Notes: generated by a model not told the origin, from the letters alone. DNA of 32,000 nt from Candidatus Saccharimonadota bacterium (GCF_008189405.1 NZ_CP043316.1:390001-422000); one strand, 5' to 3'. Counted from the stretch's first letter, positions 8,134 through 32,000 are shown. A program made the numbers and translations.

Positions 8134-8413
8134 TTATAGTGAAAATTAACAAATTCTTAAAGTAAATATACCAAAATAAAATAGCTAGCTGATAATTAAT
8201 TCGAATTAGAATTAAAATAATAAATATAATAATTAAATAAATATAAGCTTCTTAGCTAATACAAATTAAATAGAATCATTCAATAAATAATATACATAAA
8301 ATAACTAATCAATATTAGTGAAAATTAAAAATATTATGAAATTAAAATTTAATTTTCCAAACTAACCTAATAGCCAAATTAAGATATTATGAAATTGAGA
8401 TTGAAATTAAAAA

Positions 8414-8770: not shown

Positions 8771-9355
8771 ATGTTAAAAAAATTTATAATAATGCTACTT
8801 ATAACAAGTGAATCATACGCTATGGAAAACGAAGAGATGGATATGATGGATGAAATGCCTTATTCTGAGCTTGATAAGTATAGTGAGCATACCGTAAATG
8901 AGGGCTCTGAACATTTAAATGTGTCAAAATCACCTCAGTTAGATTCTCAAATAACAGTGAAGATATTAGATAACGATCAAATATATTATCGTAGTCAAAT
9001 AAAAGAAGATAGAGCTGATGATTTTGCTCATATTACTTATATGCAAAGATCAGAGCTGGCATTGTTACGCAAAATGGAAAATAGCAAATTAAAATTACAA
9101 TTACATGATGAAGATAAGATTAACGAATTACAAAATGAGGTTGCAAATTTAAAGGAAGATAGAGGTAATGATCGAGAAAGTATTAAATCATTATTGTCAA
9201 AGTTGCAAAACAAAGAAGAAAAATCAGAGCAACTAAAACTTGAATTGCAGAACAGGCAAAATGAATTTAATTATCAGATTACAAAATTACAAAATGAAGC
9301 TGCTATTTTACAAAATAGCAAAAATGATGGTCAGAAAAATATCGATAAATTATAA
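8771..9355 (+). CDS. signal-peptide + coiled-coil protein (possible N-terminal fragment of the downstream repeat protein)
   Basis: MLKKFIIMLLITSESYA has a Sec-type n/h/c layout with an SYA cleavage-like site. The C-terminal half is heptad-like (LQNEVANLKEDRGN...KLQNEAAILQN). It ends at a single TAA 9353-9355, after which the same frame stays open. Confidence 0.65.
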   Translation: MLKKFIIMLLITSESYAMENEEMDMMDEMPYSELDKYSEHTVNEGSEHLNVSKSPQLDSQITVKILDNDQIYYRSQIKEDRADDFAHITYMQRSELALLRKMENSKLKLQLHDEDKINELQNEVANLKEDRGNDRESIKSLLSKLQNKEEKSEQLKLELQNRQNEFNYQITKLQNEAAILQNSKNDGQKNIDKL

Positions 9356-9634: not shown

Positions 9635-11593
9635 TTGTCTGGAGAGCTATATACTATAGCTGCCAAGCAATATTTTAGTGCAAATAAAAATAAAAATGCT
9701 GCAGAATCGCATGAAAAGGCTGCATTCATGTATGAAGCATGCAAGTCTAAATATAAATCCACACGAGATAAGTATATTGAAAACGCTATTGAGCAATATA
9801 TAGAATCTGCAAAACTTTATGAACAACTCAAACAGTATGAAAAATCTGCACAGCAATACATCAAAATAAATCAACATAGCAAAGCTGCAGAGCAATATGA
9901 AGAAGCAGAAAATTATGATAATGCTGCAACCAATTACATTAAAGCGGAACAATATGTTAAAGCGGCTCAATGCTATTCACGCGATGCTGCAAAACATGAA
10001 GATGTTGCAACTCAGCATGAAAATCAAGGAAATAAGCATAAACAAAATAATCAATATAAAAGTTCTGCTGAACAATATAGCAATGCATCTAGACAATCTT
10101 CTGAAGCTGCTAAACAATATATAAAATCTGGACAACAGTATGAGAAAGCACAACAATACGAAGATGCTATAGAACAGTATAAAAGTGCTGCTGAACAGCA
10201 CATAAAATCCTCAAGTCAATATATAAAACTCCATGAACAAATGGAATTAGAATATGAACGCCAAAAACAGTGTGGCACTTTTAAACCTGATCATATAGTA
10301 AATCTTCAACGAAAGGGTCTTAATAGCACAATAGAAAAGCATTACGACCAATCTTCTACACAATATGCAGCTGCAGCAAAAATTCATGAAGAATCAAAAC
10401 AATTTGACAGGTCTGCATTAATATACATTGTTATTGCACAACAATACGAAAAAGCAAGCTTTCACCTCAAATCAGCACAACAATATGCAAAAGCTGCCGA
10501 ACAATATGAGAAAGATGGAACGCAATATACTCAATATGGCGAACAAAAAAAGCAGCAGTATATAAAAGCTGCTGAACAATATATAAAATCTGGACAACAA
10601 TATAGAGAGTGCCATAAAAAAAACGAAGCTGCTGAACAATACGAAAAATCTGCACAATCATATGAGAAAGCAAATAAATCTATAGATGCATCAAATTTAT
10701 ATGAAGTAGCAGCAAAACGATATTCTGAAGCATTGCGCGATACAAAATCTGCTGAGCTTTATGAAAAACTCACACAATATGAAAATGCTGCCGCCTCATA
10801 TATAGAATATGCTAACCGTTTTGCGAATAATTGGCACTCAAAAACACGAGCAGATAACCCACTTATATATATAAAAGCAGCAAATCTATATGAACGAATC
10901 AATCAATATGAAAACGCTGCTAAAGCATACGATAGCGCTGGTGCAGGATATACAAAAGAAAAAATGCATAAAGAAGCTGCTGAACAATATATGATGTCTG
11001 CGCAAAATTATGTTATTAGACCATGTAATGAATATGAAAAGGCCGCTGAGCAATATGTAAAGGCTGCTGAGCAATACGTAAAAGCAAATCAATCTGAAAA
11101 GGCCGTAAAATTGTATATAAATGCTGCACAAAATTATGTCATGGGATCATGCAGTGAGCACGTGAAATCAGCTGAACAATATATAAAAGCTGCAGAGCAA
11201 TATAAACAAATAGAGCAATATGAAAATGCTGCTGTGCACTATAATAATGCTGCACAAAAATATATAACTGCAAAAATAGATGATAAGGCAGCTCATCAAT
11301 ATTTGTGTTCAGCTGTGCAATACAAAAATGCAGGCAAATCTTTAGATTCAATAAATCAATATACAAAAGCAGCAAATACTTATGAAAAATTAGCACAAAA
11401 GTGTTCATCAGACACACCAAAAAAGCAACTATATTCCCAAGCTGCTGAGCAATATAAAAATGCAAATAAACATACAAAAGCAGATGAAATGCATAATGAA
11501 GCTAATAAAATTATAATCCCACGACATGCCCTATCTCACCGCAGAGTGCATAAATCAACAAGGGTAAGAAGATCTACCCCTACACAAAATTGA
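9635..11593 (+). CDS. AAEQY/YEKAA helical-repeat protein (paralog 2); coordinates from first canonical start (TTG), coding signature extends upstream to 9356
   Basis: 652-codon ORF of the same repeat type as 2..1198. The in-frame repeat sequence EKYEKSGQYEKAAQLYKEAAEQY starts near 9464 with no ATG/GTG/TTG between 9356 and 9634. Stop is TGA 11591-11593, immediately followed by TAA. Confidence 0.7.
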   Translation: MSGELYTIAAKQYFSANKNKNAAESHEKAAFMYEACKSKYKSTRDKYIENAIEQYIESAKLYEQLKQYEKSAQQYIKINQHSKAAEQYEEAENYDNAATNYIKAEQYVKAAQCYSRDAAKHEDVATQHENQGNKHKQNNQYKSSAEQYSNASRQSSEAAKQYIKSGQQYEKAQQYEDAIEQYKSAAEQHIKSSSQYIKLHEQMELEYERQKQCGTFKPDHIVNLQRKGLNSTIEKHYDQSSTQYAAAAKIHEESKQFDRSALIYIVIAQQYEKASFHLKSAQQYAKAAEQYEKDGTQYTQYGEQKKQQYIKAAEQYIKSGQQYRECHKKNEAAEQYEKSAQSYEKANKSIDASNLYEVAAKRYSEALRDTKSAELYEKLTQYENAAASYIEYANRFANNWHSKTRADNPLIYIKAANLYERINQYENAAKAYDSAGAGYTKEKMHKEAAEQYMMSAQNYVIRPCNEYEKAAEQYVKAAEQYVKANQSEKAVKLYINAAQNYVMGSCSEHVKSAEQYIKAAEQYKQIEQYENAAVHYNNAAQKYITAKIDDKAAHQYLCSAVQYKNAGKSLDSINQYTKAANTYEKLAQKCSSDTPKKQLYSQAAEQYKNANKHTKADEMHNEANKIIIPRHALSHRRVHKSTRVRRSTPTQN

Positions 11594-11851
11594 TAAATAT
11601 CTAACAAAAGAATTAGCATTAAATATTCGCTCATTGAGCAATTCAATGAAATGGAGAAAGTGGGTCAACACTGTAGGGCTCAAAATATGCTTGATAGAGC
11701 AAATAAAATAAAATAATCTTTCATATATAAAAAGCAGCTCTATTGAAAATCACTTTAGCTATTTCCCTCCCCCAGTATAATCACCTCAAAAATTCATCAT
11801 TTTAATGAAAATTTAAATTTTAGTTGATTGTTATCTTAAGTGTAATATAAT

Positions 11852-11857
11852 AGGAGG
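11852..11857 (+). promoter_or_regulatory. Shine-Dalgarno AGGAGG for atpH
   Basis: AGGAGG lies 3 nt before ATG 11861. TTGATT (11824-11829), a 16-nt spacer and TATAAT (11846-11851) sit directly upstream, but that would leave almost no leader. Confidence 0.5.
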
Positions 11858-11860
11858 GTT

Positions 11861-12358
11861 ATGAGCTTACAGCATTCAGTTTGGAGTAATGTGCCTGTAG
11901 ATCGCATTAGTGATTTGACAGCAGATATTCTGAAAATATACATTTTTAGGAAAAAGGAAAATGATACCTGGAATTCGATTCCAATACTTAATCTAGACCT
12001 TGAAAACACTCTAAATCTATCAAAAATATCAAATGATATAATATCTTATGTATACAATTCATGTACTTGGTCAGACTTCAATCAATTTATTTCTATGATG
12101 TATAGGCAATGCTCAATATGCAAAAGCAATATAAATAATGTTCAAGTTATTTTATCTAAGCCTGATGAAGAATTAGAGCAAATCGTAAGAAAATTCATTG
12201 TGGATCAGTTTGAAAATGATGTAAATATAATATTTAAATACAAAATATCCATCTTAGGCGGTGTTATGATTGACATTGGATCTATCAGAATTGATGCTTC
12301 TTATGGTAATATGTTGAATAAGTTTATTGGAGAATTGCATGAATCGTTTAAAGCTTGA
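11861..12358 (+). CDS. atpH: F0F1 ATP synthase subunit delta (OSCP), short and divergent
   Basis: Position as the first gene of the atpHAGDC order. The C-terminal ILGGVMIDIGSIRIDASYGNMLNKF resembles the conserved delta C-terminus (GG..v..G...iD.S....L). Confidence 0.7.
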   Translation: MSLQHSVWSNVPVDRISDLTADILKIYIFRKKENDTWNSIPILNLDLENTLNLSKISNDIISYVYNSCTWSDFNQFISMMYRQCSICKSNINNVQVILSKPDEELEQIVRKFIVDQFENDVNIIFKYKISILGGVMIDIGSIRIDASYGNMLNKFIGELHESFKA

Positions 12359-13858
12359 GGATATTATAAATGGAATTAAAGCTAAAATAGATACCTTAGA
12401 TACAAATATAGATATTTACGAAACTGGGAAGGTAGAAACTGTTGCTGATGGAATTTGCAATGTTTTGGGATTATCTGACGCTATATATGGAGAGGTTATC
12501 GTTTTTGAAAACAAACAAAGAGGGTTAATCGTAGAGTTATTGGAAGATAATGTAAAAGTAGCCATTCTAAATTCTGATCCAAAAATAATATCTGGAATGA
12601 TTGCATACAGAACAAAGCAAATACTTAAAGTTAAAGTAGGACCAGCAATGCTAGGTAGAGTTGTAAATGCATTTGGTGATCCAATTGATGGAAAAGGTGA
12701 TATTAATACTGATTTAGAGCAAGTTGTAATGGCAGAATCTCCACAAATCATAGACCGAAAAAAAGTTAGCGAACCTCTCTATACTGGTGTTAAAATGATT
12801 GATGCATTGATTCCTATAGGATATGGGCAAAGAGAGTTGATTCTGGGAGATAGAAGAACTGGAAAAACCACAATAGCAATTGGCACAATCTTAAATCAAA
12901 AAGAAAATTACCAAAAAGGGAAACCAGTCTATTGTGTTTACGTGTTTATAGGTAAAAAAGCCTCTGATGCAGCAAAATTAGCGAAATATCTTGAAGAACA
13001 AGATGCAATGAAATATACAACTTTTGTAATTGCTTCAGCAGACGATCCAGCTGTGTTTCAGTATTTAGCTCCATATGTTGGAACAGCAATTGCAGAATAT
13101 TACAGAGATAATGGAGAGCATGCATTAATTATTTATGATGATTTATCTAAACATGCTATAGCATATAGGGAAATTTCACTATTGTTGAAACGTTTTCCTG
13201 GAAGAGAAGCATATCCTGGAGATATTTTCTTCCTACACTCTAGCTTGTTAGAAAGATCAGCTTGTATGAGCGATGAAAAAGGTGGTGGATCGTTAACAGC
13301 TTTGCCAATCATTGAAACATTAGAAGGAGATATTTCTTCATATATTTCTACAAATGTGATTTCAATTACTGATGGTCAGATTTTCATGGATAAGAACCTA
13401 TTTTTATACGGGCAACGACCTGCAATCAACACAAATATATCTGTAAGTAGAGTTGGTGGATCAGCACAAACACAGGCTATGAGAAAAGTATCTGGAATGC
13501 TTAAGTTGGAATTAGCACAATATGCTGAATTAAAAGAATTTTCTAGATTCTTAACAGATATTGATGAAACTACTGAAAAAGCTTTAAGAAGAGGTGAAGC
13601 AGTAACAAGAATATTGAGGCAAGGTGCTAACCAGCTGTACTCATTTGAAGATGAAATACTTGTGATTTTTGGATGCAACTTAGGATGCTTTGATAATTAT
13701 CCAATAGATAAATTACAAGAAGCTGAAAAACAATTCTTATCTCAATTTAGAAAAGAAAACTTTAGCATATTAGATAAATTAATTAAAACAAAAGTGATTG
13801 ACGAAGAAATAGATTCCACTGTGAAGAAGTTTGTAAAGAAATTCAAGGAACAGTCTAT

Positions 13859-13862
<4 letters not shown>
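12339..13862 (+). CDS. atpA: F0F1 ATP synthase subunit alpha
   Basis: Walker A GDRRTGKTT. Conserved stretches include YDDLSKHAIAYREISLLLKRFPGREAYPGDIFFLHSSLLER and ITDGQIF. ATG 12339 is preferred over the listed TTG 12327 and overlaps the atpH stop. Confidence 0.95.
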
Positions 13863-16067
<2,205 letters not shown>

Positions 16068-16068
16068 T

Positions 16069-16449
16069 ATGTTTCTTTCTATCACATCTGGAGTAAAAGA
16101 AGTGATTCATGAGAAAGTATTTATGATTGGGTTTAACAATTATAATGGGATGAAAGCTGTATATTATGGACATAAAAGTTTCGTCATGTCAGTTCCTGCA
16201 AACACATTATTTGTTTTATTAGAAAAATCTCATAAATTATATTCTATTGGCAATGCATTAATCAAAAAAAGAAAAGAAAACTTATACGTTATCACACACT
16301 ATATTGATAATGATCAAAAACTGAAAATTCAGCCTAAATTACAAGAAAAATGGGATCAAATCGTAAAAGCATATAAAAAAAATTGGTCTAGAGAGAACTG
16401 GTTTGAACAAAATAAAGATCATGCAATTAATTTGATTCCGAAGATATAA
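16069..16449 (+). CDS. atpC: F0F1 ATP synthase subunit epsilon, divergent
   Basis: Starts 1 nt after the atpD stop. Size (126 aa) and position fit epsilon, and there is a weak match to the beta-sandwich N-domain pattern (GMKAVYYGHKSFV). Confidence 0.65.
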   Translation: MFLSITSGVKEVIHEKVFMIGFNNYNGMKAVYYGHKSFVMSVPANTLFVLLEKSHKLYSIGNALIKKRKENLYVITHYIDNDQKLKIQPKLQEKWDQIVKAYKKNWSRENWFEQNKDHAINLIPKI

Positions 16450-16476
16450 GCTGAGTAAGGTAAGGAACAGAAACAA

Positions 16477-18060: not shown

Positions 18061-18062
18061 AA

Positions 18063-19661: not shown

Positions 19662-19873
19662 AAGAAAATTCAACACCATACTGCATTACGTTACAACATA
19701 ACTGCAGATTATAAATCCGTATGCAAAATCAACTTGTATAATTACAAAAGACTATGTAACAAAATTAAAAAATGAAACATAATTATATTATTTAATGAAA
19801 TATTGTTAATGGGGAAACAAAAATTATGATATGCTAGAGCTTTCAGATCTCTAATTTCTCATGACTGCATTAC

Positions 19874-21562
19874 TTATTCTGATATTATAGATGATATCTT
19901 TTCTAATTTCTTTCGCAATTCTTCAATTTCTTTCCGCTGTTCATCAATTGTTTTATCCTTATCTACCATTGCTTTTTCAACAATTCTTAACATCTCTTTA
20001 TTATTTAGCACATAATTTGGATCACTATCAAACATAATTGTCCCAGAATAATAAGGTGATGCAACATAGGGCATATAAATCGGCTTACTAGAGTTACTAC
20101 TGGAAATAACATAATTTTTACCCTTAATGTATTGTTTAAATTCATCTATGTTTTCAGAAGGTTTATAGTATAAAAGCTTCTCATTTAGTTCACTACTTAA
20201 CTTATTAAATAATATTAAACTACTATAACAAGGTAGACACGGATATGTTAATAATTTTGTCATTTTATTTTTTAGTTTATATTGATCTCCATCATTACAA
20301 TAAGTTAAGCATATTTTAGAATGAATGCTGTAAGCCATCGCAACATATCTAGGCATAATATCTTCAAACACCTTACTATCTACATATGCAAATTTTTCCA
20401 TCCATCTTGTATATGGAAAAGAATCAAAATCAGCTGGAATAATAATTGCACTTACTTTAAAATAATTATTTAACTGTATCATGGCATCTACACTTGCAGT
20501 ACTTCCTGATCCATGATGTGGCGCCATACAAATAATACTATGCTGTGGTTGAGCTTGATGTGCTGGATTTTCTTGTACAGAGTCATATAACGCGTATAAT
20601 GCCTTATTTTCATTATCTATTCTTTTTCCCGTGGCCTGCATCAACGCACTAAGCCATGGATATTTCTGTAATCTTATTTTATGTCTCAGCACACCTCCAT
20701 CTGCTTCTTGATCATTTATCTTTTCTTTTAAATATGCAGGTAAATTGTCTTTCAATGTGTTCAATGTGCTATTTTCAGCATCTCCAGTACATAAAAGTGA
20801 CATAGTATCCTTATCACCATATTTATGTGCAAATGAAATAATCGGACTGGCTGCATTGTGATTTGCATTAGTATTCATAGACCATATGTATACATAATTT
20901 TGCAATTCAGAAATTATATTATCAAATCCACTTAAATATCTTCTATATCTCTCCGCTTTTTCACTAATTTCTGATTTTTCTATTTTTTCATTGATACTTC
21001 TATTTTCATTGATACTTATATATTGATTTTCAAGTTGTGCTTGAGCCTTATCCCATAATTCTTTAATATCCCCATTAAAAAAAGCAGGATTAGAATGTTC
21101 TTCATTCTTTTTATTTCTCCAATAATATGGTTCGATTGATCTATCTTTATACTGCAAACGTACTTCTTTCGCAATTTTTGTATCTTTTGTATTCCAATCA
21201 CCACATAGAAATGCAACTAGATTAAACTGCTTTAAATAACTAAAATAACCCCTCATTTCACTTATATGATCTTGTTCAGGATGAGATAATATAACTATCA
21301 ATAAATTCAAACCTTTTAGTGCTTTTAAAGCAGCATCTTTATCTATACCGTAAGTAGTAGTAGTTCCAAAATCATACATTATGCCTACTCTTTGGGGCAC
21401 TAGAGTACTATTATCCTCTTTCACCCAATATTTATTTAATTGACAATTCCCTTTACCAAAATTGAATATATAAAACTCACTTTTTTCCACCACCGAGTCG
21501 ATTTGCAGCATGCATATCATTAAGCATGTACGCTGCAAATAATTTACGAATATTTTCAACAT
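19874..21562 (-). CDS. ComEC-type MBL-fold family protein, paralog A (562 aa), possibly decaying
   Basis: Aligns with 26462..29509 across the N-terminal module: IFNFGKGNCQLN, ILSHPEQDHI (21266-21283), FLCGDWN, YVYIWSMNT, LLCTGDAENS, ICMAPHHGS. C-terminal coiled coil. No SD upstream, and the putative signal peptide is interrupted by Q/R. Confidence 0.75.
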   Translation of the reverse strand: MLKIFVNYLQRTCLMICMLQIDSVVEKSEFYIFNFGKGNCQLNKYWVKEDNSTLVPQRVGIMYDFGTTTTYGIDKDAALKALKGLNLLIVILSHPEQDHISEMRGYFSYLKQFNLVAFLCGDWNTKDTKIAKEVRLQYKDRSIEPYYWRNKKNEEHSNPAFFNGDIKELWDKAQAQLENQYISINENRSINEKIEKSEISEKAERYRRYLSGFDNIISELQNYVYIWSMNTNANHNAASPIISFAHKYGDKDTMSLLCTGDAENSTLNTLKDNLPAYLKEKINDQEADGGVLRHKIRLQKYPWLSALMQATGKRIDNENKALYALYDSVQENPAHQAQPQHSIICMAPHHGSGSTASVDAMIQLNNYFKVSAIIIPADFDSFPYTRWMEKFAYVDSKVFEDIMPRYVAMAYSIHSKICLTYCNDGDQYKLKNKMTKLLTYPCLPCYSSLILFNKLSSELNEKLLYYKPSENIDEFKQYIKGKNYVISSSNSSKPIYMPYVASPYYSGTIMFDSDPNYVLNNKEMLRIVEKAMVDKDKTIDEQRKEIEELRKKLEKISSIISE

Positions 21563-21860
21563 GATCAGACTATAACTTTATTCTTCATTACTTACAATAC
21601 ACATAGCATCCATTATTCACTGTAATATAAACAATTATCACCCTTTTCATAATTGCAAACACATAATTTTAAGTAAAATCATTATATATGATCGTAAAAT
21701 TTCTAATATATAAGTATACACTAAGTAACGATGCATGCTTAATATATCATGCATTATTTATAGCTTATATATTATGATGTATTAATTTAATGATGCAAAA
21801 TCCATTTTAGCACCTACTATGTAACAGGAGGTTGCTAAGAATTAGTAGATTGATCGCGTA

Positions 21861-22970
21861 TTATGATGTCCATTTATTAAACATATTTTTGATATTTTCG
21901 AATGAACTTGTCTTTGTTTCTGTTTTATTGCTCTGATTACTAATCTTATCCAATGCGCTCCAAAGATTTATCTCTTCTGCTGTCATAGTTTTCTTAGAAG
22001 GAGTTTGTACAACAACGCGTACATATAAGTTACCCTTGCTTCGCCCAATAACCATTCCATGTGTTGCAACTCTCAGCTTAGTCTCAGATTGTATGCCTTC
22101 AGGAATTTTAATATTAATCATCTTTTTATCAATAGAGCTAATTTGAATTTCACTACTATTCACAGCTTGTACTGGTGAGATATTCACAGAACAATACAGA
22201 TCAGATTTAACTCTAGTAAATTCCTTATGCTTTGCTATACGAATCCTGATGTATAGGTCACCACTTCTAGAAACACCTTCATCACCCTCACCTACCAAAC
22301 GGATTTCTTGTCCATTTTCTATGCCTTGTGGGATAGTAATTGAGATTTCTTTATCTTTTTTAACTCTACCATTTCCAGCACAAAATCTACACTTAACTTT
22401 TATGGTTTTTCCAGTTCCGTTACAATTACTACATGCTTGCTCCACATGAAAAAAACCATGCCTAACATGCAACGTTCCTTTACCTTGGCATTGATTACAT
22501 TTTACAGGTGGCTCCATTGATCCAACACCTTTGCACTTTTCGCATTTTGCTAATTTTGGAATTTTCACTTTAGTTTGGTGACCATGATAAGCTTGCTCTA
22601 AAGTTATTTCTAAATCGAAACTTAAATCACGACCTGCTTGATTAGTAGATTGCTTTTGCCCACCACCAAAAAAACTAGAAAATATGTCATCCATACCATT
22701 AAAGAATGATGATCCTTGCTGAAATTGACTTGAATCAAATCCACCAAATTCATCCCCACCATGATCATATTGCGTTCTTTTATTTTGATCTTTCAAAACT
22801 GTATATGCTTCAGATATTTCTTTAAACCTATCTTCAGCTTCTTTTTTCTTTGCATCTTCAAATCTATCAGGGTGATGTTTCTTTACCAAAGACCTGTAAG
22901 CTTTTGTAATCTCTTCTTGTGTAGCAGTTTTAGAAACACCTAAAACATCATAATAACTTTTTTTATTCAT
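21861..22970 (-). CDS. dnaJ: chaperone DnaJ
   Basis: J-domain YYDVLGV...HPDR, a G/F-rich linker, and four CxxCxGxG repeats (CEKCKGVG, CNQCQGKG, CSNCNGTG, CRFCAGNG). Confidence 0.96.
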   Translation of the reverse strand: MNKKSYYDVLGVSKTATQEEITKAYRSLVKKHHPDRFEDAKKKEAEDRFKEISEAYTVLKDQNKRTQYDHGGDEFGGFDSSQFQQGSSFFNGMDDIFSSFFGGGQKQSTNQAGRDLSFDLEITLEQAYHGHQTKVKIPKLAKCEKCKGVGSMEPPVKCNQCQGKGTLHVRHGFFHVEQACSNCNGTGKTIKVKCRFCAGNGRVKKDKEISITIPQGIENGQEIRLVGEGDEGVSRSGDLYIRIRIAKHKEFTRVKSDLYCSVNISPVQAVNSSEIQISSIDKKMINIKIPEGIQSETKLRVATHGMVIGRSKGNLYVRVVVQTPSKKTMTAEEINLWSALDKISNQSNKTETKTSSFENIKNMFNKWTS

Positions 22971-22997
22971 TTATTTATTTCCTTAGCATTCAATACT

Positions 22998-24908
22998 TTA
23001 TTTATCTTCTTTTACGTTCTCTTCTTCTGCTTTATATTCAGCATCCTGAACAGTATCTTGATTTTCAGAGCTTTCAGAATTATCATCTGATTTTTTCTCT
23101 TTTTCTTGAGCAGCTTTATAAGCAATTTCACCAAGCTTCATAGCGTCATTTGATAGAGCAGCGATTGAATCTTCAAGAACTTTCATATCATCAGAATCTT
23201 TTTTGCTTTTCAAATCTTCTAAGGATGCTTCAATTTTTTGCTTGTTTTCTGCTTCAAGTTGATCTCCATGATCAACCAAAGCTTTTTCTGTACTTGAAAT
23301 CAAAGATTCTGCTTTATTTTTAACTTCAATTAATTTAACTTTTTGCTTATCAGATTCAGCATATTCTTCAGCTTCTTTGATCTTTTGTTCAATTTCTTCT
23401 TCAGACAATCCACCAGAATCTTTAATAGAAATTCTGTGCTCTTTATTAGTTGCTTTATCTTTAGCAGAAACATGAACAATACCATCTACATCAATTTCAA
23501 AAGTAACTTCAACTTGAGGAATCCCTCTTGGTGCTGGAGAAATTCCTGTCAAATCAAATTGCCCTAACAGCTTATTATCAGAAGCCATTTCTCTTTCACC
23601 TTGCAACACTCTAATTGTAACAGAGGTTTGATTATCTGCTGCAGTTGAGAATACCTGAGATTTCTTAGTTGGAATTGTTGTGTTTCTTTCAATTAGTTTA
23701 GAACAAATTCCACCTTCAGTTTCAATTCCCAATGATAATGGTGTAACATCAAGAAGCAATACATCTTTTACATCACCTTGAAGAACACCACCTTGAATAG
23801 CAGCTCCACTTGCAACAACTTCATCAGGATTCACTCCTTGATGTGGTTTCTTACCAAAAATTTGTTGTACTTTCTCTGCAATTTTAGGCATACGTGTCAT
23901 ACCACCAACCAAAACGACATCATCAATATCACTAGAAGATAACCCAGCATCTGCTAATGCTTTTTTACATGGTTCTGCTGTTCTTTCAACCAAACCGTCA
24001 ACCAAAGATTCTAATTTAGCTCTAGTAATAGATACATTAAGATGTTTAGGACCAGATGCATCTGCTGTAATAAATGGCAAATTAACTTCAATTTGATTAG
24101 AAGATGAAAGTGCAATTTTAGCTTTTTCTGCTTCTACTCTTAATCTTTGTAGCGCAAGCTTATCTTTTCTTAAATCAATACCATCTGATTTCAAAAATTC
24201 ATCAGCTAAATAATTCAATACAGCTTGGTCAAAATCTTCACCACCTAAGAAAGTATCACCATTAGTTGATAGAACTTCAAAAACACCATCACTAATTTCT
24301 AGGATAGAAACATCAAATGTTCCTCCACCCAAATCATAAACAGCAATCTTCCCTGATTTCTTCTTCTCTAAACCATATGCAAATGCTGCAGCTGTAGGCT
24401 CGTTAATAATTCTTTTTACATCTAATCCAGCGATTCTACCAGCATTCTTTGTAGCATTACGCTGTGCATCATTAAAATACGCAGGAACAGTAATTACCGC
24501 TTCAGTAACAGTAGCTCCTAAATATTTTTCTGCTGTAGATTTCAATTTTTGCAAAACAATAGCACTAATTTCTTCAGGTCTATAAGTTTGTCCATTTACT
24601 TCTACGCATGCATCTCCATTACAATTCACAATTTTGTATGAAGATAAATTAGCATGTTCTTTTGTGGTTTTATCATCGTAACGACGTCCAATTAACCTTT
24701 TTACAGAGTTAAAAGTATTCAATGCATTTGTCACAGCTTGTCTATTTGCTGCAGCACCCACAACTTTCTCTCCATCTTTAAAGGAAACTACAGAAGGAGT
24801 TGTTCTTCCACCCTCATCATTAGGTATAATAACAACCTTTCCTCCTTCAAGAACTGCAACACATGAGTTTGTTGTTCCTAAATCTATTCCAATAATTTTG
24901 TTCATCAT
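22998..24908 (-). CDS. dnaK: chaperone DnaK (Hsp70)
   Basis: [38 protein letters not shown]. Full-length 636 aa. Confidence 0.98.
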
Positions 24909-24999
24909 GACCCCTTTCTCGTAAAATTCAATAATAAATTAACCGTATATTTCAATTTATCAAAAATTTCTGTAAAAAGCTACTAATTTCTGTAAAGAA

Positions 25000-25545
25000 C
25001 TATTTAATTCCTGTTGAAACAGAGACTTTCGCATGCCTCAATACTTTATCATTCATCATATAACCTTTTGCTTTTATTTGAGCTATTTTATTTTTATCTT
25101 GATCTGAGCTTATTTCTTCTAAAATTTCATGTTTTTGAGCATCAAATTCATCACCAATTTGAGTATTTTGTTGGGTGATATTTTTACCCTCTAAAATAGA
25201 CAGAATTTGCTTATATACTAACTGAATACCAATATGAATATTCTTATCAGATTCAGCAGCTTGCAATGCTAACTCTAAATTATCCACAACCTCTAAAATA
25301 GATAGAGCAAAATTGTTGACAACATGTTTAGCATACTCTCTCGAATCTCTTTCAAATCTTTTTCTCATATTCTCTTTATCAGCTAATGAAAGGACAAGAT
25401 CTCCCTTTAATTTTTTAACTAAATTCTCTAAACCTTCTTGCGCATTCTCTTCATTTTCAGAATCTGAATTAGCATTTAAATTTACAGAATCCACATTATC
25501 ATTTAAAGTTTCATCTACATTACTTGAATCATGATCTACAAACAT
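25000..25545 (-). CDS. grpE: nucleotide exchange factor GrpE
   Basis: Acidic N-terminus, then LADKENMRKRFERD, the C-terminal beta-domain GYMMNDKVLRHAKVSV, and a position directly upstream of dnaK. Confidence 0.9.
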   Translation of the reverse strand: MFVDHDSSNVDETLNDNVDSVNLNANSDSENEENAQEGLENLVKKLKGDLVLSLADKENMRKRFERDSREYAKHVVNNFALSILEVVDNLELALQAAESDKNIHIGIQLVYKQILSILEGKNITQQNTQIGDEFDAQKHEILEEISSDQDKNKIAQIKAKGYMMNDKVLRHAKVSVSTGIK

Positions 25546-25629
25546 TGAACCCCCAAAATACTATGAATTTTATCAAAAAAATATTATTTAATCTAGTTTG
25601 AACCTTTAAAAACAAACTAAATCATAACT

Positions 25630-25658
25630 AATTTAACATAATACCTAACCAAAGTCAA
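25630..25658 (-). promoter_or_regulatory. candidate promoter for grpE-dnaK-dnaJ
   Basis: On the minus strand: TTGACT (25658-25653), 17-nt spacer, TAAATT (25635-25630). GGGGG SD at 25555-25551, 5 nt before ATG 25545. Confidence 0.3.
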
Positions 25659-25771
25659 TTTTCTGTACAAACCATCATTCTATCCTATATATCACACATC
25701 TTTCGTTATCAGTAATTTTTAAAATATTAATTAGCTCCTAAAATCCTTTTTATACAAATAATCCATAATAT

Positions 25772-26290
25772 ATGTTATCCTGTACGAATATGTTAATTGA
25801 AATCAAACCATTACCTAGTTATGCGAAATATTGGAGAATCACAACAGCGAATATTCCACACAGTTTACAATTAGCTGCGGAATATGCTGCAAAGAAGGCG
25901 ATTGCATTCAAGACACACATGCATGAGCAGGAAATACACCTTAATGTTAGATGCATTGATGTTCGATATATGAAATATTTGAATAAGAAGCATAGGGGCA
26001 AGAATAAAATTACAAATGTTTTGTCTTTTTCTTCTGATGTGATGCCAGATGATATGAAGTGTACTAGGATTTTAGGGGATATTTTTGTATGTACTAAAGT
26101 CATAGAGGATGAGGCATTGGAAGCAGATAAAAACTTCGAGGAGCACTTCATTCATATGGTGGCTCATGGGGCATTACACCTAATCGGGTATGATCATGAA
26201 ACTGAAGAGCAAAGTAAAATCATGCAAGACGTAGAAATCAAATTACTCAAAACCTTCAACATCCAAAATCCATATAAAATAAATGACTGA
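25772..26290 (+). CDS. ybeY: rRNA maturation endoribonuclease YbeY
   Basis: Metal-binding motif HMVAHGALHLIGYDHE. The start may be the internal Met at 25790. Confidence 0.9.
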   Translation: MLSCTNMLIEIKPLPSYAKYWRITTANIPHSLQLAAEYAAKKAIAFKTHMHEQEIHLNVRCIDVRYMKYLNKKHRGKNKITNVLSFSSDVMPDDMKCTRILGDIFVCTKVIEDEALEADKNFEEHFIHMVAHGALHLIGYDHETEEQSKIMQDVEIKLLKTFNIQNPYKIND

Positions 26291-26461
26291 TATAATGCAT
26301 ATTAATTGAAAATATTATAATATCTGCTAAATCAATATTAACAAAAAAACTTTACAATATATTCATTAATCTTGACTAAAAAAAATTTGATTAAAACATA
26401 ATATAAATCCATTATTGTGAATTAAGCTGTTGCCAGTTCTTTTGAATCTGATTATTGTTGA

Positions 26462-29400
26462 TCATCTTTTTTCAGCTTGTGCTTTAAGCTTGTTCAATTC
26501 ATCTATAGTGAAAGTTAAATTTGCATATTTACCTAAATCCCTAAGTGCATCATCTACACACGCTCCGTCTAAGTATTCTATTGCAGTATCAATTTCACCT
26601 TTTAACTTTTTTACTTCTTCTATAGTAAGTTCAGTAACTTCAGCAATTTCATTTATACTCACCGTATTCTTTATTAACATACTTTTCGCAATATTAATAC
26701 GCGTTTGATTTGTTCTTTCCTTTTCTGCCTTATCCATAGAAATACCATAGTTATATTTAATTATACTATCATTCATAAACTCCAGTATGCTACCCTTGAT
26801 TCTCACTCCGCTATTATGTCCAGCATATTCCTTATATTCAAACTCTTTAATATATTTCCAAGATTCAAGATATTTAGTATATTCAGTAGATTCAACAGAT
26901 TCAACAGATTCAACAGATTCAACAGATTTAGGCACACTGTTTGTATGGACACCTATTACAACATTACCATTTAAAATAATTGGACTTCCACTATTTCCTT
27001 GCAAAGTATCTACTGTATGTAAAATCATTTCATTATCATTATTTCTGAGTCTAGCTTTTTTAGCATTTCCAGATGATTTACACAGTTTGCTATTAGTACT
27101 TGTATTGCAAGCTCCTGGATATCCAATGATTGTTACATCTTTTTTATCAGCAAATTCTACTACTTTAAGTTTAAATACACCTTCTTCATTATCAGTAATA
27201 TTATAATCAAAAAATAGTAATGCAATATCATACTCAAGCGCACGCTCTTCTTTTCCTTTATAATTGTCATGAACATAATAATGTTTACAATGATGTTTAG
27301 TATTATGCCCCTCTTTTGCAAGTGCAAAATATACTTCATAAGCTCCTTTAAATTCAAAATCATATACATTATGCGCAGCAGTCATTACTATATTTTTACC
27401 AATTAAAAATCCACTTCCAAATACTGGCTTATCAATACCATCAAATTTCATGGTTATTTTTCCACAAGCAGAGTATGGAAGTGATTCCAATTCTTCCGAT
27501 TTTGTAATTTGTTCAAATGCCTCATCTTCTGATTTTGCACTCATTATAGATTCAGGCTCTCCATACCTACCTTCATTATATTTTTTCATTGCTTCCATTC
27601 TTCTATCATTTTCACTTTCATTTAACTCAGCAAGAATTGGACCGCCATAGCCTTCTATACTTTTAATATTTTTTTCATCTTTTTCATCTTGATCTGGTTT
27701 ATCAAATTTAGGCATTATAATTTTAACAATACCATCTGGACCTACGTTTACATATTGACTTGTAAATATATTCTTATCATCTTTACTTACAGGCACTGTA
27801 TTATTTACTGCTACAATAGAATATGCTGCTGCAAGTGCAATGATAGGATAAGGCTCAATACAATCATCAAATCCATTCCAATCACTTATAGTAACACACA
27901 AACTTCCATGATCATTCGTTGAATATAGCCAATTTGGACACCTTAACTTATCTGAATCTTTATATGGCCTAATAGGTGCATCTTTTCCGCTTGATGCTCC
28001 TATATATGTAGCTATTTGAGACAAATCTGTTTTTAGCCCTGCAACCACACCATTAATGTTTTTTAATATTATACAATAACTATCACCAATGCTTTTTGAT
28101 AATTTCCCATATCTCCCTCCTATATCATCATTCAAAATTCCAACACTCATCATCCTATACCAGTGTTGATGTATATGTGGATACATTGTTCCATGCCCAT
28201 TAGATACATAAACCATGCTCATCTTCATTAAATCATTTAATAAAATCATAGTACTTGCTTGATCTGCAGATCCATGATGTGGTGCAATACAAATAATATC
28301 ATGATCACTAGTATCACTTGTTACAGAATCATATAATGCATATAATCCAACTTTATGGCTATCTGTCGCCTGCATCAATGCATTTACATATGAGTATTTT
28401 TGTAATTTCATATTCCTACGCACAATATCTTTTCTATCTTTTAAGTATAGCCGCAACCTTTCTTCTAATGATTTATTATCATTACCTGATATTGTACTAT
28501 CCTCAGCATCTCCTGTACAAATCATAGATAAATATTTTGTATCTCTTGAGACAGTTTGATATTGGTGTGTGAATGAGATAATTGGACTAACTGCATTCTG
28601 ATCCTTTTCTGCACTATTACATGGTGTATTCATAGACCATATATATATATAATCTCTTAACTGAGCAATTGCATTATCAAATTGATTTAAATAACCTAAT
28701 AATGATGCTTGAGCATTTGCTTGAATTAGCTGGTTTTGAGCTAAATCAAACTGTTGATTTGTATGATCCCATTGGCATATATAATCTATATAATTGATTT
28801 TGTTTTTGGCATGAGAGTCAGTCAGAGATTTTAATTGATGAGTTAAATTTTTAACATTTGCTTCTGCAGCTGTCTTATTTGCTACTTTTCGTGCTTGAAT
28901 AAGATTCAATTCACCCTTCGCTATAGCAAATAATTCTTCAATATTTCCATAGAAGAAATTATTGCCCATTCTATCCTTACTCCAAGAATATGGCTCTATT
29001 AGTTTATTTATAAAAGCATCTTTTGCTTTTTTCATTTCACCTTTGTCATTCCAAACCCCACATAGAAATGAAATAACTTTTAATGTCCCATCAATCATTT
29101 TGTCTTTTAATGACTGGCTTTCTTTATCAACTTTATATTCAAGAACTCCTTCAACCTTATTTATATGATCTCTATCTGGATGTGATAGGATTACTATAAG
29201 TAAATGTAAGTCTGTAAGTTTTGAGCTAATTTCACCACATAAAGTTGCAGACCTAACATTATCAGCATATACATTAAATCTCAATGGAAATGGATGGCTC
29301 CCACAATCATACAGGAATCCAATTCGTTCTCTTTTTTTCACTTGCATTCCATCTTCATCCCTTTTATCATACTCAACAAAATACGTATTCAACTGGCAGT

Positions 29401-29509
29401 TACCTTGGCCGACATCAAATACATGCATCTCACTGCTCAGTACTCCAGCGTCAATCGATATACCAACAACCAGTATCAGGCTGCGTAATAGCATCATATT
29501 ATTCTTCAT
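26462..29509 (-). CDS. 1015-aa multidomain protein: signal peptide + ComEC-type MBL module + S1 trypsin-fold serine protease + (VES)n repeat + Rpn-like helical tail (paralog B)
   Basis: DVGQG 29402-29416, HPDRDH 29165-29182, TGD 28508-28516, HHGS 28268-28279. Protease triad: TAAHNV (His 27371-27373), EYDIALL (Asp 27227-29), GNSGSPI (Ser 26990-92). SD AGAGG lies 5 nt (GTAAA) before ATG 29509. Confidence 0.85.
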   Translation of the reverse strand: MKNNMMLLRSLILVVGISIDAGVLSSEMHVFDVGQGNCQLNTYFVEYDKRDEDGMQVKKRERIGFLYDCGSHPFPLRFNVYADNVRSATLCGEISSKLTDLHLLIVILSHPDRDHINKVEGVLEYKVDKESQSLKDKMIDGTLKVISFLCGVWNDKGEMKKAKDAFINKLIEPYSWSKDRMGNNFFYGNIEELFAIAKGELNLIQARKVANKTAAEANVKNLTHQLKSLTDSHAKNKINYIDYICQWDHTNQQFDLAQNQLIQANAQASLLGYLNQFDNAIAQLRDYIYIWSMNTPCNSAEKDQNAVSPIISFTHQYQTVSRDTKYLSMICTGDAEDSTISGNDNKSLEERLRLYLKDRKDIVRRNMKLQKYSYVNALMQATDSHKVGLYALYDSVTSDTSDHDIICIAPHHGSADQASTMILLNDLMKMSMVYVSNGHGTMYPHIHQHWYRMMSVGILNDDIGGRYGKLSKSIGDSYCIILKNINGVVAGLKTDLSQIATYIGASSGKDAPIRPYKDSDKLRCPNWLYSTNDHGSLCVTISDWNGFDDCIEPYPIIALAAAYSIVAVNNTVPVSKDDKNIFTSQYVNVGPDGIVKIIMPKFDKPDQDEKDEKNIKSIEGYGGPILAELNESENDRRMEAMKKYNEGRYGEPESIMSAKSEDEAFEQITKSEELESLPYSACGKITMKFDGIDKPVFGSGFLIGKNIVMTAAHNVYDFEFKGAYEVYFALAKEGHNTKHHCKHYYVHDNYKGKEERALEYDIALLFFDYNITDNEEGVFKLKVVEFADKKDVTIIGYPGACNTSTNSKLCKSSGNAKKARLRNNDNEMILHTVDTLQGNSGSPIILNGNVVIGVHTNSVPKSVESVESVESVESTEYTKYLESWKYIKEFEYKEYAGHNSGVRIKGSILEFMNDSIIKYNYGISMDKAEKERTNQTRINIAKSMLIKNTVSINEIAEVTELTIEEVKKLKGEIDTAIEYLDGACVDDALRDLGKYANLTFTIDELNKLKAQAEKR
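26889..26928 (-). repeat. perfect 9-bp tandem repeat (GATTCAACA x4 plus a partial copy) encoding (VES)n
   Basis: Unit copies at 26889-26897, 26898-26906, 26907-26915 and 26916-26924, then GATT. Translated on the minus strand as SVESVESVESVES, between the protease domain and the tail. Confidence 0.9.
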
Positions 29510-29836
29510 TTTACCTCTATCCTCATAATGCCAAGGTTTTTACAATGAATTGCACCTGAAACTTTATAATTGTTCAGACTATAACCTATTTTCCCGGCAA
29601 TTTGAAGGGTATCCTCATGATTACCTCAATTTTCAATCAAAATCAGCAACTATGATTTCAAAAGAAAATGTAAAAAGAAAACAAACTGCAATAAGAATAT
29701 ATATAATCAACAAGATAAAGCAGTGCCAAATACTCAGTTCAACATTGCATAATATAAACTATAAATGTTTAAATCCTAAATAAACACCTAAGCCTGATCA
29801 AAACCAGATAATCAAATAAAAAAAATTACTTAATAT

Positions 29837-31093
29837 TTATTTGATACATTTATACGCATTATAGTGCTGCTTCACAGCTCGAAGCTCTTCATTTTTCATC
29901 TTTTTATAGAAAGTCTTTATAGAATTAGGGTTCACAAATTTCCCATCCACTTTAATCTCATAATGCAAATGTGCAGCAGTTGTCATACCTGTATTTCCTG
30001 AATATCCTATCAACTCACCTTTTTTAATTTTCTGATTTTTATTCAAAAGCAATTTTGTAAGATGCGCATAACCAGTTGTGATTTTACCATTATATGTCGG
30101 ATGTGTAAGTTCAATATAATTTCCATAACCCCTACAAACAAATGCTCTTGTAACAATTCCATCGGCTGAAGCATAAATAGGAGTCCCCAAAGGTGCTGCG
30201 TAATCAATGCCTCTATGCATTCGTTTAATTTTCAAAACTGGATGAATTCTCCAACCATATGAAGATGAAACTCTAGCATTTACAGGCTTATTCAAATAAA
30301 CCAAATCATCATAGGAATAATTTTTCATAGGATCATACAGTTTTTTCCCTAACTGCACTATCACGTTATTCTCACCATTCTTATATTTAACATCTATCAG
30401 AGAAATCTTTGGCATCACTCCTTTTTGAGATGAAGATTCATACTCCACATTAATATTATGAATATTATGAAGAGATTTCCCTGCTTTTTGCATATATTGC
30501 ATTATTGTATGAACCATCGGCATTGGTAAACTTTTAGAAATTGAATTTCTCAAATTACCATTCACTTTATGCTTAAATATTTCTCTTTTCTCTCTCTGAA
30601 TCCATTCTAAAATAATATTATCATCAATAGATTTAAGAAAAATCTTAAAACCTTTGCCTGTAATATAGCATTCATCAAATTTATGCTGACCATTTTGCTC
30701 AAATACTTTAGTGGAAATCACGGCATTATATAGCCATGATGGAGGAATTACTTTTTCAATTTCTTGAGTAATTTTTGCAACTTGATTAAGAGCAATTCCC
30801 TCTTTTGAAAATGATATTGAAACACCTTCATGCCCAATCACGTGCTTTACCATTAATTGTTTTACAGGAATATTAGATAAAATCATATTAGATTGGGAAA
30901 TTTTTGGAACATTTGCTAATTTTAGTATAACAATACAACCACTCATAAATAGACATAATCTAAATAATGATATTAATTCGAAAAAGATATAAGTAAAGTT
31001 GATTAATCTAGGCATTAATCTGACAAAACTAGCCACATAACGACTCCAAAAACTAATTTCATCTACAAAAAACTTTACTACTATCGAGACCAC
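29837..31093 (-). CDS. M23 (LytM-type) peptidoglycan metalloendopeptidase, membrane-anchored, MepM-like
   Basis: HRGIDYAAPLGTPIYASADG and TAAHLHYEI (the HxxxD and HxH zinc motifs of M23). N-terminal hydrophobic helix. The start is uncertain: GTG 31093 or ATG 31015. Confidence 0.88.
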   Translation of the reverse strand: MVSIVVKFFVDEISFWSRYVASFVRLMPRLINFTYIFFELISLFRLCLFMSGCIVILKLANVPKISQSNMILSNIPVKQLMVKHVIGHEGVSISFSKEGIALNQVAKITQEIEKVIPPSWLYNAVISTKVFEQNGQHKFDECYITGKGFKIFLKSIDDNIILEWIQREKREIFKHKVNGNLRNSISKSLPMPMVHTIMQYMQKAGKSLHNIHNINVEYESSSQKGVMPKISLIDVKYKNGENNVIVQLGKKLYDPMKNYSYDDLVYLNKPVNARVSSSYGWRIHPVLKIKRMHRGIDYAAPLGTPIYASADGIVTRAFVCRGYGNYIELTHPTYNGKITTGYAHLTKLLLNKNQKIKKGELIGYSGNTGMTTAAHLHYEIKVDGKFVNPNSIKTFYKKMKNEELRAVKQHYNAYKCIK

Positions 31094-31363
31094 GAAGCAA
31101 TTCTAACACTTTCAAATAATTATCGCTATCTTATGTTGAAAAATCTGTGTAAAAATTGATATAAAATTAATTTTATTCTTTGGAAATACCTATATATAAC
31201 GCAAATATATTGTAATTTCTTTATTACAAAAATATCATTATTTTATATGGTATATTTTATGTAAATTTATCCGTTTATTCTTGTAAATTTTATGCAAATA
31301 ATATTCTATATTGCATGATTACAAATAATATGCCTATTATGCACACATTAGGAGTGTGTAAGC

Positions 31364-32000
31364 ATGAAAAAATCTCTAATAATACCTCTGTGTACATTAA
31401 TCACCCAGATCGAATCTGTAGTTCTAAGCAGTGAATTTCATATATTTGATGTTGGGCAAGGTAATTGCCAGTTGAGTAAATATTATGTCCAATATAATCA
31501 TAGCAATGAATATGGACAATCAGTTGAAAAAACGGAAAGAATTGGATTCCTTTATGACTGTGGAAACCATAAGCATTCACAAAAATCTGGTAGCCATAAG
31601 AGCAGATCGCAAACTTTAAGTGATGCAATCAATAAAGATATGCTAACAGATCTTGACTTGCTTGTAACAATCCTTTCATACCCAAATGTAGAAAATATAA
31701 ATAGTTTGAGTGGATTATTAGAAAATCACTATGCAGTCCAAAGCCATGATCCAAAAAAAAGAAGATCTTCTGAAAAGCCATTTGTTTCATTTCTATGTGG
31801 TGATTGGGGTCAAAGTAAAGACTCTGTTGCAAGCACAAAAAAACGTTTGGCAGATAATTCTATAGAAACATATTCATGGAAAAACAGTGATGGATCACCT
31901 GAATTTTTCTCTGATAATATTGTTGAATTGTGGTCAAAAGCAAAATCACAAACAAGTCATGCAAAACAATTGTTATTAAGTAAGTTTGATAATGCAATTG
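31364..32000 (+). CDS. ComEC-type MBL-fold family protein, paralog C, 3' end cut by window edge; metal-binding motif degenerate
   Basis: Absent from the ORF track because it runs off the window; translated by hand as MKKSLIIPLCTLITQIESVVLSSEFHIFDVGQGNCQLSKYYV...RIGFLYDCG...LLVTILSYPNVENI...SFLCGDWG...IETYSWKN...FFSDNIVELWSKAK...LSKFDNAI. GGAG lies 9 nt before ATG 31364. Collinear with paralogs A and B. Confidence 0.8.
   Translation, partial: MKKSLIIPLCTLITQIESVVLSSEFHIFDVGQGNCQLSKYYVQYNHSNEYGQSVEKTERIGFLYDCGNHKHSQKSGSHKSRSQTLSDAINKDMLTDLDLLVTILSYPNVENINSLSGLLENHYAVQSHDPKKRRSSEKPFVSFLCGDWGQSKDSVASTKKRLADNSIETYSWKNSDGSPEFFSDNIVELWSKAKSQTSHAKQLLLSKFDNAI

Follow-up and report, generated by a model that had tools for sequence, protein, structure and literature searches.

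The 32,000-nucleotide stretch analyzed here (the window) belongs to the chromosome (622,378 bp; record OX638200.1) of Candidatus Cytomitobacter primus, a Holosporaceae endosymbiont of the diplonemid Diplonema japonicum, a marine protist, and is the reverse of positions 316,869-348,868 of that record. It holds three members, designated A, B, and C, of a protein family built on a metallo-β-lactamase (MBL) head that, judged by sequence, is a stand-alone relative of the C-terminal domain (CTD) of ComEC and that carries modular appendages. The expansion of this family, of which the genome contains at least seven copies, is real and previously undescribed; a term-level search found no mention of it in the preprint 10.1101/719211, in the 2025-26 D. 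japonicum genome note, or in a Holosporales review. We lean, if only slightly, toward regarding these proteins as exported effectors directed at the host, the active copies of which would hydrolyze phosphodiesters while the variable parts would serve diversification.

Copy number and arrangement of the family

Within the window, the three paralogs are located as follows.

19874..21562, minus strand: paralog A (P0006, annotated as "MBL fold metallo-hydrolase"), 562 amino acids (aa), between dnaJ and rpoD
26462..29509, minus strand: paralog B, MBL head plus secreted-type S1 protease, 1015 aa, between the M23 gene and ybeY
31364..32000, plus strand: paralog C (P0004), aa 1-212 of 671, divergently oriented relative to the M23 gene

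The first-pass annotation, made from the window sequence, had described A, B, and C as three collinear paralogs. The open reading frames (ORFs) are present at the places it gave, and the pairwise similarity, the absence of which would have spoken against a family, lies far beyond chance in BLASTP (A-B, 31% identity over approximately 530 columns, E = 9e-64; C-B, 43% identity over 184 aa, E = 3e-41; C-A, 36% identity, E = 4e-30). A, B, and C are true paralogs. The motif blocks said to be shared are likewise present and collinear, except that A departs from them at the first blocks (FNFGKGNCQL and RVGIMYDFG). Three members, however, proved too small a number: a homolog search, exact-protein look-ups, and a local hidden Markov model (HMM) search revealed at least seven copies in C. 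primus, four of which (D, E, F, and G) lie just past the end of the window. The positions of all seven in OX638200.1 are given below.

293.7-295.9 kb: D (P0002), 735 aa
297.1-299.4 kb: E (P0003), 758 aa
302.1-304.3 kb: F (P0005), 719 aa
304.5-307.4 kb: G (P0019), 979 aa
315.5-317.5 kb: C (P0004), 671 aa, the end of which lies approximately 1.4 kb beyond the window
319.4-322.4 kb: B, 1015 aa
327.3-329.0 kb: A (P0006), 562 aa

All known copies thus form a loose 35-kb array, with A, B, and C at its right-hand end. The earlier statement that the copies are not in one island stands insofar as they are placed between core genes, but not insofar as all seven are found within 35 kb of a 622-kb chromosome. 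Interleaved with the array are ahpC, SDR, sppA, rpmH-rnpA, frr, tpiA, greA, rpsB-tsf-pyrH, and a GH108 muramidase gene, as well as the neighbors that had been named from the window, i.e., the M23 peptidase gene, ybeY, and grpE-dnaK-dnaJ, all of them ordinary housekeeping genes. The genome-wide search for copies that had been proposed was realized as a mapping of OX638200.1 259.7-348.9 kb by exact-protein look-ups and local HMM search; the latter detected no further copies in the 10 kb preceding or the 20 kb following the array, and an exhaustive protein search added just one C. primus member (P0019, corresponding to G). Together, the seven copies amount to 5439 aa, or 2.6% of the genome, and each is a long unbroken ORF (562-1015 aa) in a genome of 30% GC. 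D- and E-type sequences are present in the EukProt Trinity transcriptome; therefore, at least these copies are transcribed.

The head and its relationship to ComEC

The assignment of an MBL-type head was upheld at the sequence level and could be specified as ComEC-CTD-like. The NCBIfam model TIGR00361 (ComEC_Rec2) matched 10 of 18 family members with a best E value of 1e-7 and scores of at most 30 bits against a cut-off of 190, the matches being confined to profile positions 434-663 (DVGQG...SHPDxDH at 434-517 and TGDAE...PHHGS...GHP at 553-657). When the family profile was compared with all PDB sequences, it retrieved ComEC chains only (E = 5e-4 with all members and 4e-8 with the short members), making the ComEC/Rec2 CTD (PDB 9vcb, 9vc6, and 9ic4) the sole family of solved structure matched by the head, and hhalign against E. 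coli YcaI yielded a probability of 90% (E = 1.5e-6). As in the ComEC CTD, the motifs DVGQG, HxDxDH, the Asn of motif III, TGD, PHHGS, and GHP are collinear in the head. Specifically, the ComEC-type ligand pattern is kept, with Asp at the position of the second His of motif II and Asn (N305) at motif III, two features that set the ComEC domain apart from other MBLs (PMC8579336). In the family alignment, G34/G36/N37, H110, D114, N305, D334, and H411/H412 are invariant or nearly so. The five MBL ligand motifs occur in order in B, D, E, F, and G, in which every one of them is present, whereas they are partly altered in A and degenerate in C.

No member matches the Competence channel domain PF03772 in Pfam, and the family proteins are therefore not ComEC. 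They also differ from it in being devoid of an OB domain, in possessing an N-terminal leader of their own, in their multiple copies, and in their large helical insertions and variable C-termini. The ComEC CTD is an extracytoplasmic Mn-dependent phosphodiesterase/nuclease (PMC8579336), and an extracytoplasmic site would also apply to the present family. The next NCBIfam models, Avs1a (NF041809; 3 of 18 members, best E = 4e-9) and 6A-MBL (NF058524; 7 of 18 members), represent MBL components of anti-phage systems and belong to the same ComEC-like MBL branch. Unlike true members of these two groups, the family reaches a best score of 35.6 bits against a cut-off of 420, and neither Avs1a/6A-MBL partner genes nor a STAND NTPase was found in the neighborhood, the context being one of housekeeping genes.

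The window itself encodes a ComEC protein (4473-6449, plus strand, 658 aa), which matches TIGR00361 at positions 42-402 of 663 only, i.e., it has the Competence channel and no MBL CTD. The family head is the closest known relative of the very domain that is absent there, and the paralogs might accordingly be pictured as periplasmic nucleases acting in trans beside the ComEC channel for DNA uptake, be it to import DNA delivered by gene transfer agents or to obtain nucleotides. The extracytoplasmic location and nuclease function of the ComEC CTD (PMC8579336) would fit this picture, as would the retention of genes of the type II secretion/type IV pilus kind in these symbionts and the gene-transfer-agent clusters that one report describes for reduced genomes of protist endosymbionts (PMC9254644). 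However, a ComEC without the lactamase domain is ancestral and usual in Proteobacteria other than some beta, gamma, and delta groups (PMC6299819), and therefore there is nothing to compensate; since alphaproteobacterial ComEC normally lacks the MBL domain, replacement of a lost ComEC domain was rejected as the principal explanation. Moreover, DNA uptake would require no more than one nuclease, whereas the family comprises seven diverged copies featuring stalks, a protease, helical C-termini, and one member that is probably dead. The similarity to ComEC is remote (E of approximately 1e-7) and not that of a recently split-off domain, and the fusions to OTU-like domains found in relatives (see below) make no sense for a periplasmic role. 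We consider a function in DNA uptake improbable.

Appendages, divergent copies, and evolution

According to the alignment, length varies at three sites, namely, an N-proximal site (with an insertion of approximately 150 aa in G), an internal site between FFxGNIxEL and FDNAI (31-294 aa among the seven copies), and the C-terminus following STNxHG (36-480 aa). The C-termini do differ, as the first-pass annotation had emphasized, but so do the internal insertion sites. The internal insertions of D and E consist of Glu/Lys/Ala-rich repeats, and that of B is modeled as a helical hairpin. At the C-terminus, private helices are found in A and F, an all-helical domain rich in aromatic residues is common to C and G (E = 1e-26), and only B is enzymatic there. 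For the domain of C and G, local phmmer gave only the C-G relationship, and the AlphaFold2 (AF2) model is all-helical with low confidence; in G it comprises approximately four copies of a unit of approximately 85 aa, with fewer copies in C. Within G, the motif IV segment is also exactly duplicated, LCTGDAEDSTAF occurring twice. D, encoded by a gene of 2208 nucleotides (nt), features tandem repeats of approximately 22 aa, EAKEAAEKKTSKAIEAEKKAIR, and its transcriptome-derived version P0001 is 88 aa shorter, which may reflect true repeat-number variation or assembly collapse of the repeats. A hydrophobic N-terminus (Kyte-Doolittle value of at least 1.6) is present in B, C, D, E, and F.

Paralog B was dissected into the following elements.

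29510..29610, minus strand: upstream element of approximately 100 nt, 90-93% identical in D and E (blastn, alignment)
29444..29509, minus strand: hydrophobic leader, aa 1-22, MKNNMMLLRSLILVVGISIDAG, a putative Sec signal peptide
27875..29443, minus strand: ComEC-CTD-like MBL head, aa 23-545, all ligand motifs intact
28661..28942, minus strand: variable helical insertion inside the head, aa 190-283, a predicted helical hairpin (also seen in the alignment)
27425..27874, minus strand: linker, aa 546-695, homologous to the N-terminal pro-region of stand-alone protease paralogs
26936..27424, minus strand: S1 (trypsin-fold) serine protease, aa 696-858, triad H713, D761, S840
26465..26935, minus strand: C-terminal tail, aa 859-1015, SVE repeats plus a helical module at approximately aa 925-992

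The genome collection contains two C. primus contigs that encode precisely the B protein. The leader, with a Kyte-Doolittle segment at residues 5-26 (maximum, 2.02) and an AF2 helix at residues 2-17 that precedes the first strand, is nearly identical in D and E, with nonsynonymous rates (dN) of 0.02-0.07 versus synonymous rates (dS) of 0.4-0.7. The head, for which the predicted local distance difference test (pLDDT) values are mostly 70-90, carries the ligands D32 (FDVGQGN), H110-P-D-R-D-H115, N305, D334 (CTGDAE), and H411-H412 (APHHGS), followed by STNDHG at position 530; its insertion, with AF2 helices at 190-235 and 240-270, corresponds to the family's main length-variable site. The C-terminal protease recognized in the first-pass annotation was confirmed by a match to PF00089 (E = 2.3e-13; 50.9 bits, cut-off 20.6) together with the triad H713/D761/S840, and PF13365 was matched as well (E = 3.4e-12). 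The PDB matches were glutamyl endopeptidase (1p3c, E = 3e-8), SplB, and V8, and the domain is assigned to the S1B type, i.e., the ordinary secreted glutamyl-endopeptidase/Spl kind. Residues 696-858 share with the secreted S1B proteases V8 and Spl the fold signature and an intact His/Asp/Ser triad; unlike these, the protease of B is located behind an MBL head, and its linker and helical tail are shared only with C. primus paralogs.

These paralogs point to the origin of the fusion. P0156, P0157, and P0158 are stand-alone C. primus peptidases, and P0156, a trypsin-like protein with its own leader peptide, is 35% identical to B over 86% of the last 455 aa of the latter (aa 561-1015). A second expanded family, with at least five members, is formed by trypsin-like serine peptidase genes grouped at 269.7-281 kb of the chromosome (10001-11245, 15063-16748, 17069-18430, 19356-19799, and 20404 onward in coordinates local to OX638200.1 259.7-280.9 kb). 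The cluster is interleaved with murB, ddl, and others and lies approximately 13-24 kb from the MBL array, its stand-alone proteases being approximately 40 kb distant from B. The linker of B matched ORFs of the same 259.7-280.9 kb stretch (phmmer, E = 2e-7 to 8e-7). The module in the tail, which with the residues up to aa 1015 corresponds to window 26465-26735 and is predicted by AF2 with pLDDT values of 86-93 at aa 931-970 without alignment depth, recurs at the C-terminus of P0156 (phmmer) and in a 171-aa ORF of that stretch (local 11396-11911, E = 5e-11); the C-terminus of P0157 resembles it by eye. The tail also matched the NCBIfam Rpn C-terminus weakly (E = 0.0038), and its module may be a shared targeting or secretion module. 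Since the homology to P0156 runs along 86% of the last 455 aa, B is a head fused to a complete mature secreted protease, one lineage of the peptidase family having donated its C-terminal half.

A shared head with variable C-termini had been likened to polymorphic toxins, a comparison implying a delivery head, variable toxins, and immunity proteins deployed against co-resident bacteria. As in Rhs, CDI, and LXG toxins, the paralogs share one part and differ elsewhere, and one copy, B, ends in a hydrolase, here a protease; furthermore, two endosymbiont species share one host, and effector/immunity pairs of the type VI secretion system are reported in these genomes. In contrast to such toxins, immunity genes are absent: no small co-oriented ORF follows any of the seven copies, downstream of which are found convergent or housekeeping genes, namely, rpoD, ybeY, the GH108 muramidase gene, SDR, a hexapeptide transferase gene, and rpmH. 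The conserved part is an enzyme-like, catalytic-looking domain with metal ligands, no PAAR, VgrG, RHS, LXG, or TPS trafficking domain was detected by Pfam/NCBIfam, and internal sites vary as well. Most C-termini consist of coiled-coil or helical-repeat sequence and match no toxin domain, only that of B being enzymatic, and the protease of B is of an ordinary secreted type with stand-alone signal-peptide paralogs. The analogy could not be sustained, and we regard a toxin-immunity system as hardly credible.

Paralogs A and C are the divergent copies within the window. A, which matches the family HMM with an E value of 1e-127, consists of two parts.

20072..21562, minus strand: divergent MBL head, approximately aa 1-497 (HMM match extents, motif table, alignment)
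19877..20071, minus strand: private C-terminal tail, approximately aa 498-562, with a short charged helix at its end, KEIEELRKKLEKISS

The head of A contains FNFGKGN, HPEQDH, N236, CTGDAE, and APHHGS and is without the terminal GHG..HP and STNxHG blocks, and its N-terminus is weakly hydrophobic, with no Kyte-Doolittle segment of at least 1.6. A homolog of the tail was not found in any of the loci compared (phmmer), and its comparison with Pfam gave coiled-coil matches below threshold only. The sign of the GC skew flips exactly at the junction of the convergent rpoD and A genes (window approximately 19.6-19.9 kb), being positive at 12-20 kb and negative at 20-31 kb and following gene orientation; the flip may be a replication-related switch or only a transcription strand bias. 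In C, the metal-ligand motifs are degenerate (SYPNVEN in the window, CAGNAE and ASHRES beyond it); although the ORF is intact, every ligand of motif II is gone, as are the bridging Asp and one His. Consequently, C is very probably dead as a catalyst, and we take it to be probably a pseudoenzyme. The protein at the C slot of C. indipagum keeps intact motifs, and the ligand loss is therefore specific to C. primus.

The persistence of the C ORF without ligands, the lack of several head motifs in A, and the long helical insertions, which comprise up to 294 aa and are rich in Glu, Lys, and Ala, could also be taken to mean that the family is non-catalytic throughout, an MBL-like scaffold with a coiled-coil adhesin-like or envelope role beside the host mitochondria, to which the symbionts are reported to lie close. 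This surface or structural role is unlikely in our judgment, because the predicted metal ligands are all invariant or nearly so in the wider family and in five of the seven copies, and the motif windows show a dN/dS ratio of 0.1-0.3, a pattern that is hard to explain without catalysis.

As to the mode of expansion, B, D, and E have in common approximately 100 nt of upstream sequence (90-93% identity) as well as the leader, and the version of G is recognizable. In B, this region includes a GAGG ribosome-binding site and, at 29606..29578, the sequence TTCAAA-17-TATAGT, which resembles a promoter; scans for promoters of A and C gave matches at chance level in AT-rich DNA, so that among the promoter calls of A, B, and C only that of B is backed by conservation. 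Based on the shared promoter and leader, each copy looks like a transcription unit of its own that was duplicated along with its promoter. While dS is near saturation for most pairs, it falls to 0.17-0.24 in a tract of B and D (aa 341-420), which indicates gene conversion. Calculated by domain, as had been suggested earlier, dN/dS is 0.1-0.3 in motif windows and ranges from 0.5 to above 1 in variable windows, values to be read qualitatively only because of the near-saturated dS.

Phylogeny and synteny extend this picture to other genomes. In a neighbor-joining tree, a form of the phylogeny that had been called for, the copies cluster mostly by genome, with 100% support for B/D/E of C. primus. 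C. indipagum has family members at three slots (before M23, between M23 and ybeY, and between dnaJ and rpoD), those at the B and C slots being 76% identical, and a third genome of approximately 620 kb (OZ247489) has a family copy at the M23 (C) slot. Judging by the shared slots and the grouping by genome, the arrangement predates the species split and was followed by duplication or homogenization within each genome. The idea of lineage-specific insertions is contradicted by this comparison, as the A, B, and C slots are filled in C. indipagum and hence do not represent recent insertions. None of the family members found in relatives has an assigned function. The M23-ybeY slot of the OZ247489 619-kb metagenome-assembled genome (MAG) is occupied by two large ORFs of 816 and 1135 aa (local 2357-4807 and 4935-8342, both minus strand), which match neither the MBL family nor NCBIfam.

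The loss of ligands in C, the strong divergence of A, the dN/dS values of 0.5 to above 1 in many windows, and the internally duplicated motif IV of G raise the question whether the family is in decay, a remnant of an old expansion under strong drift. Against this, all seven ORFs are intact although stops arise easily at 30% GC, the slots are conserved across species as are promoter and leader, D and E transcripts were recovered, and a 622-kb genome rarely retains 16 kb of junk. Decay is thus very unlikely to be the explanation.

Distribution and possible function

In an exhaustive profile search, 246 cluster representatives were retrieved at E ≤ 1e-10, 100 of them at E ≤ 1e-30, and almost all are unnamed proteins. 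The genome matches were to Cytomitobacter, Caedibacter MAGs, and other alphaproteobacterial MAGs, with weaker matches to Babeliales; beyond C. primus, the family is found in Holosporales-type and other small host-associated genomes. Three longer metagenomic members carry an OTU-like cysteine-protease domain (Pfam, 24.8-25.6 bits versus a cut-off of 23.3), located at aa 40-160 in P0056, aa 30-150 in P0062, and aa 640-730 in P0065. These domains contain a DGNCLF motif, and their best PDB matches are a nairovirus OTU and EschOTU (E = 0.004-0.008). The order of their segments, WGG...HY followed by DGNCLF, is the reverse of that in a canonical OTU, suggesting a circular permutation. While the DGNCLF motif is common to these relatives and to the OTU effectors of intracellular bacteria (EschOTU, PDB 6w9s), the apparently permuted segments and the weak scores of approximately 25 bits distinguish them. 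Bacterial OTU domains act on eukaryotic ubiquitin-like modifiers, and the fusion of such a domain to the same head speaks for a role of the family inside the host cell. The effector character considered in the first-pass annotation fits the hydrophobic leaders and these fusions in distant members.

Our preferred reading, that of exported, host-directed effectors, would comprise the following steps. A stand-alone ComEC-CTD-type MBL domain without the membrane channel would have expanded in this lineage by local duplication, with an own promoter for each copy, and by gene conversion. The proteins, five of which begin with a clearly hydrophobic, putatively Sec-type leader, would be exported, and the presumably active copies B, D, E, F, and G would hydrolyze phosphodiester substrates, most probably nucleic acids. 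The variable sites, i.e., the internal "stalk," the N-proximal insertion, and the C-terminus, would provide each copy with a different location or a second activity. B was born when a head fused to an entire mature secreted S1 protease from the second expanded family, and C would probably serve as a non-catalytic paralog for binding or anchoring. In this reading, the paralogy, the number and location of the copies, the domain relationships, the state of the motifs, the fusion origin of B, and the synteny are demonstrated, and export, catalysis, substrate, and host targeting are inferred.

Several observations count against parts of this reading. The gathering threshold of PF00753 (Lactamase_B) was not reached by A (17.6 versus 22.7 bits), B and C gave no match, and only 2 of 18 family members match this model at E ≤ 0.1. 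The AF2 models, built on only 18-19 sequences, retrieved nothing at E ≤ 1e-3 in Foldseek, the best hit for B being the MBL nuclease RNase J2 (E = 0.01) and the matches of C being noise. The nearest structural relatives of the ComEC CTD include phosphorylcholine esterase (PMC8579336), and the substrate therefore need not be a nucleic acid. As regards export, A and G are without a clearly hydrophobic N-terminus. Finally, the OTU fusions belong to distant metagenomic relatives and occur neither in the window nor in the C. primus genome.

Upstream of the array, the window contains rpoD, dnaG, and an ATP synthase operon, and several further genes were noted.

131..1198 and 9635..11593, both plus strand: proteins matching PF14938 SNAP (45 and 81 bits, cut-off 25) plus TPR models
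11861..16449, plus strand: intact F1 ATP synthase operon (delta, alpha, gamma, beta, and likely epsilon)
2823..4331, plus strand: ORF of 502 aa without Pfam match
8771..9355, plus strand: ORF of 194 aa without Pfam match
16069..16449, plus strand: ORF of 126 aa without Pfam match

Neither of the two SNAP-matching proteins has an NCBIfam match; they may represent effectors of eukaryote-like type or simply TPR proteins. As to the ATP synthase operon, oxidative phosphorylation is reported to be lacking in the organism (bioRxiv preprint 10.1101/719211); the 126-aa ORF, which follows atpD, may encode the epsilon subunit. The 502-aa and 194-aa ORFs had no match in NCBIfam either. The M23 gene situated between B and C had been thought to be possibly linked to them through cell-wall passage. 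It encodes a MepM/ShyA-like housekeeping endopeptidase and keeps its position in three genomes; a functional link is unlikely and was rejected, the position of the gene appearing coincidental.

With due reserve, the findings can be placed in a wider frame. The family may possibly represent an unrecognized effector superfamily of obligate intracellular bacteria, consisting of exported nucleases or phosphodiesterases of the ComEC-CTD type, each borne by a variable coiled-coil stalk. Equally tentative is the notion that its members combine with modular host-directed partners, an S1 protease here and an OTU deubiquitinase-like domain elsewhere. It is likewise conceivable, though doubtful, that a nucleotide-auxotrophic "energy parasite" uses them for docking at host structures and for breaking down nucleic acids of the host or of mitochondria, or other phosphodiesters. 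If true, the nuclease domain of ComEC would have been reused as a free, modular, exported enzyme. Cytomitobacter is one of only a few diplonemid symbionts to have been sequenced, diplonemids themselves ranking among the most abundant protists in the sea, and published analyses of it speak only of "many putative secreted proteins." Occupying 2.6% of a 622-kb genome at slots kept across species, the family is a prime candidate for the host-interaction toolkit, and its greatest value may lie in providing a short list of candidates for the interaction between diplonemids and their symbionts.

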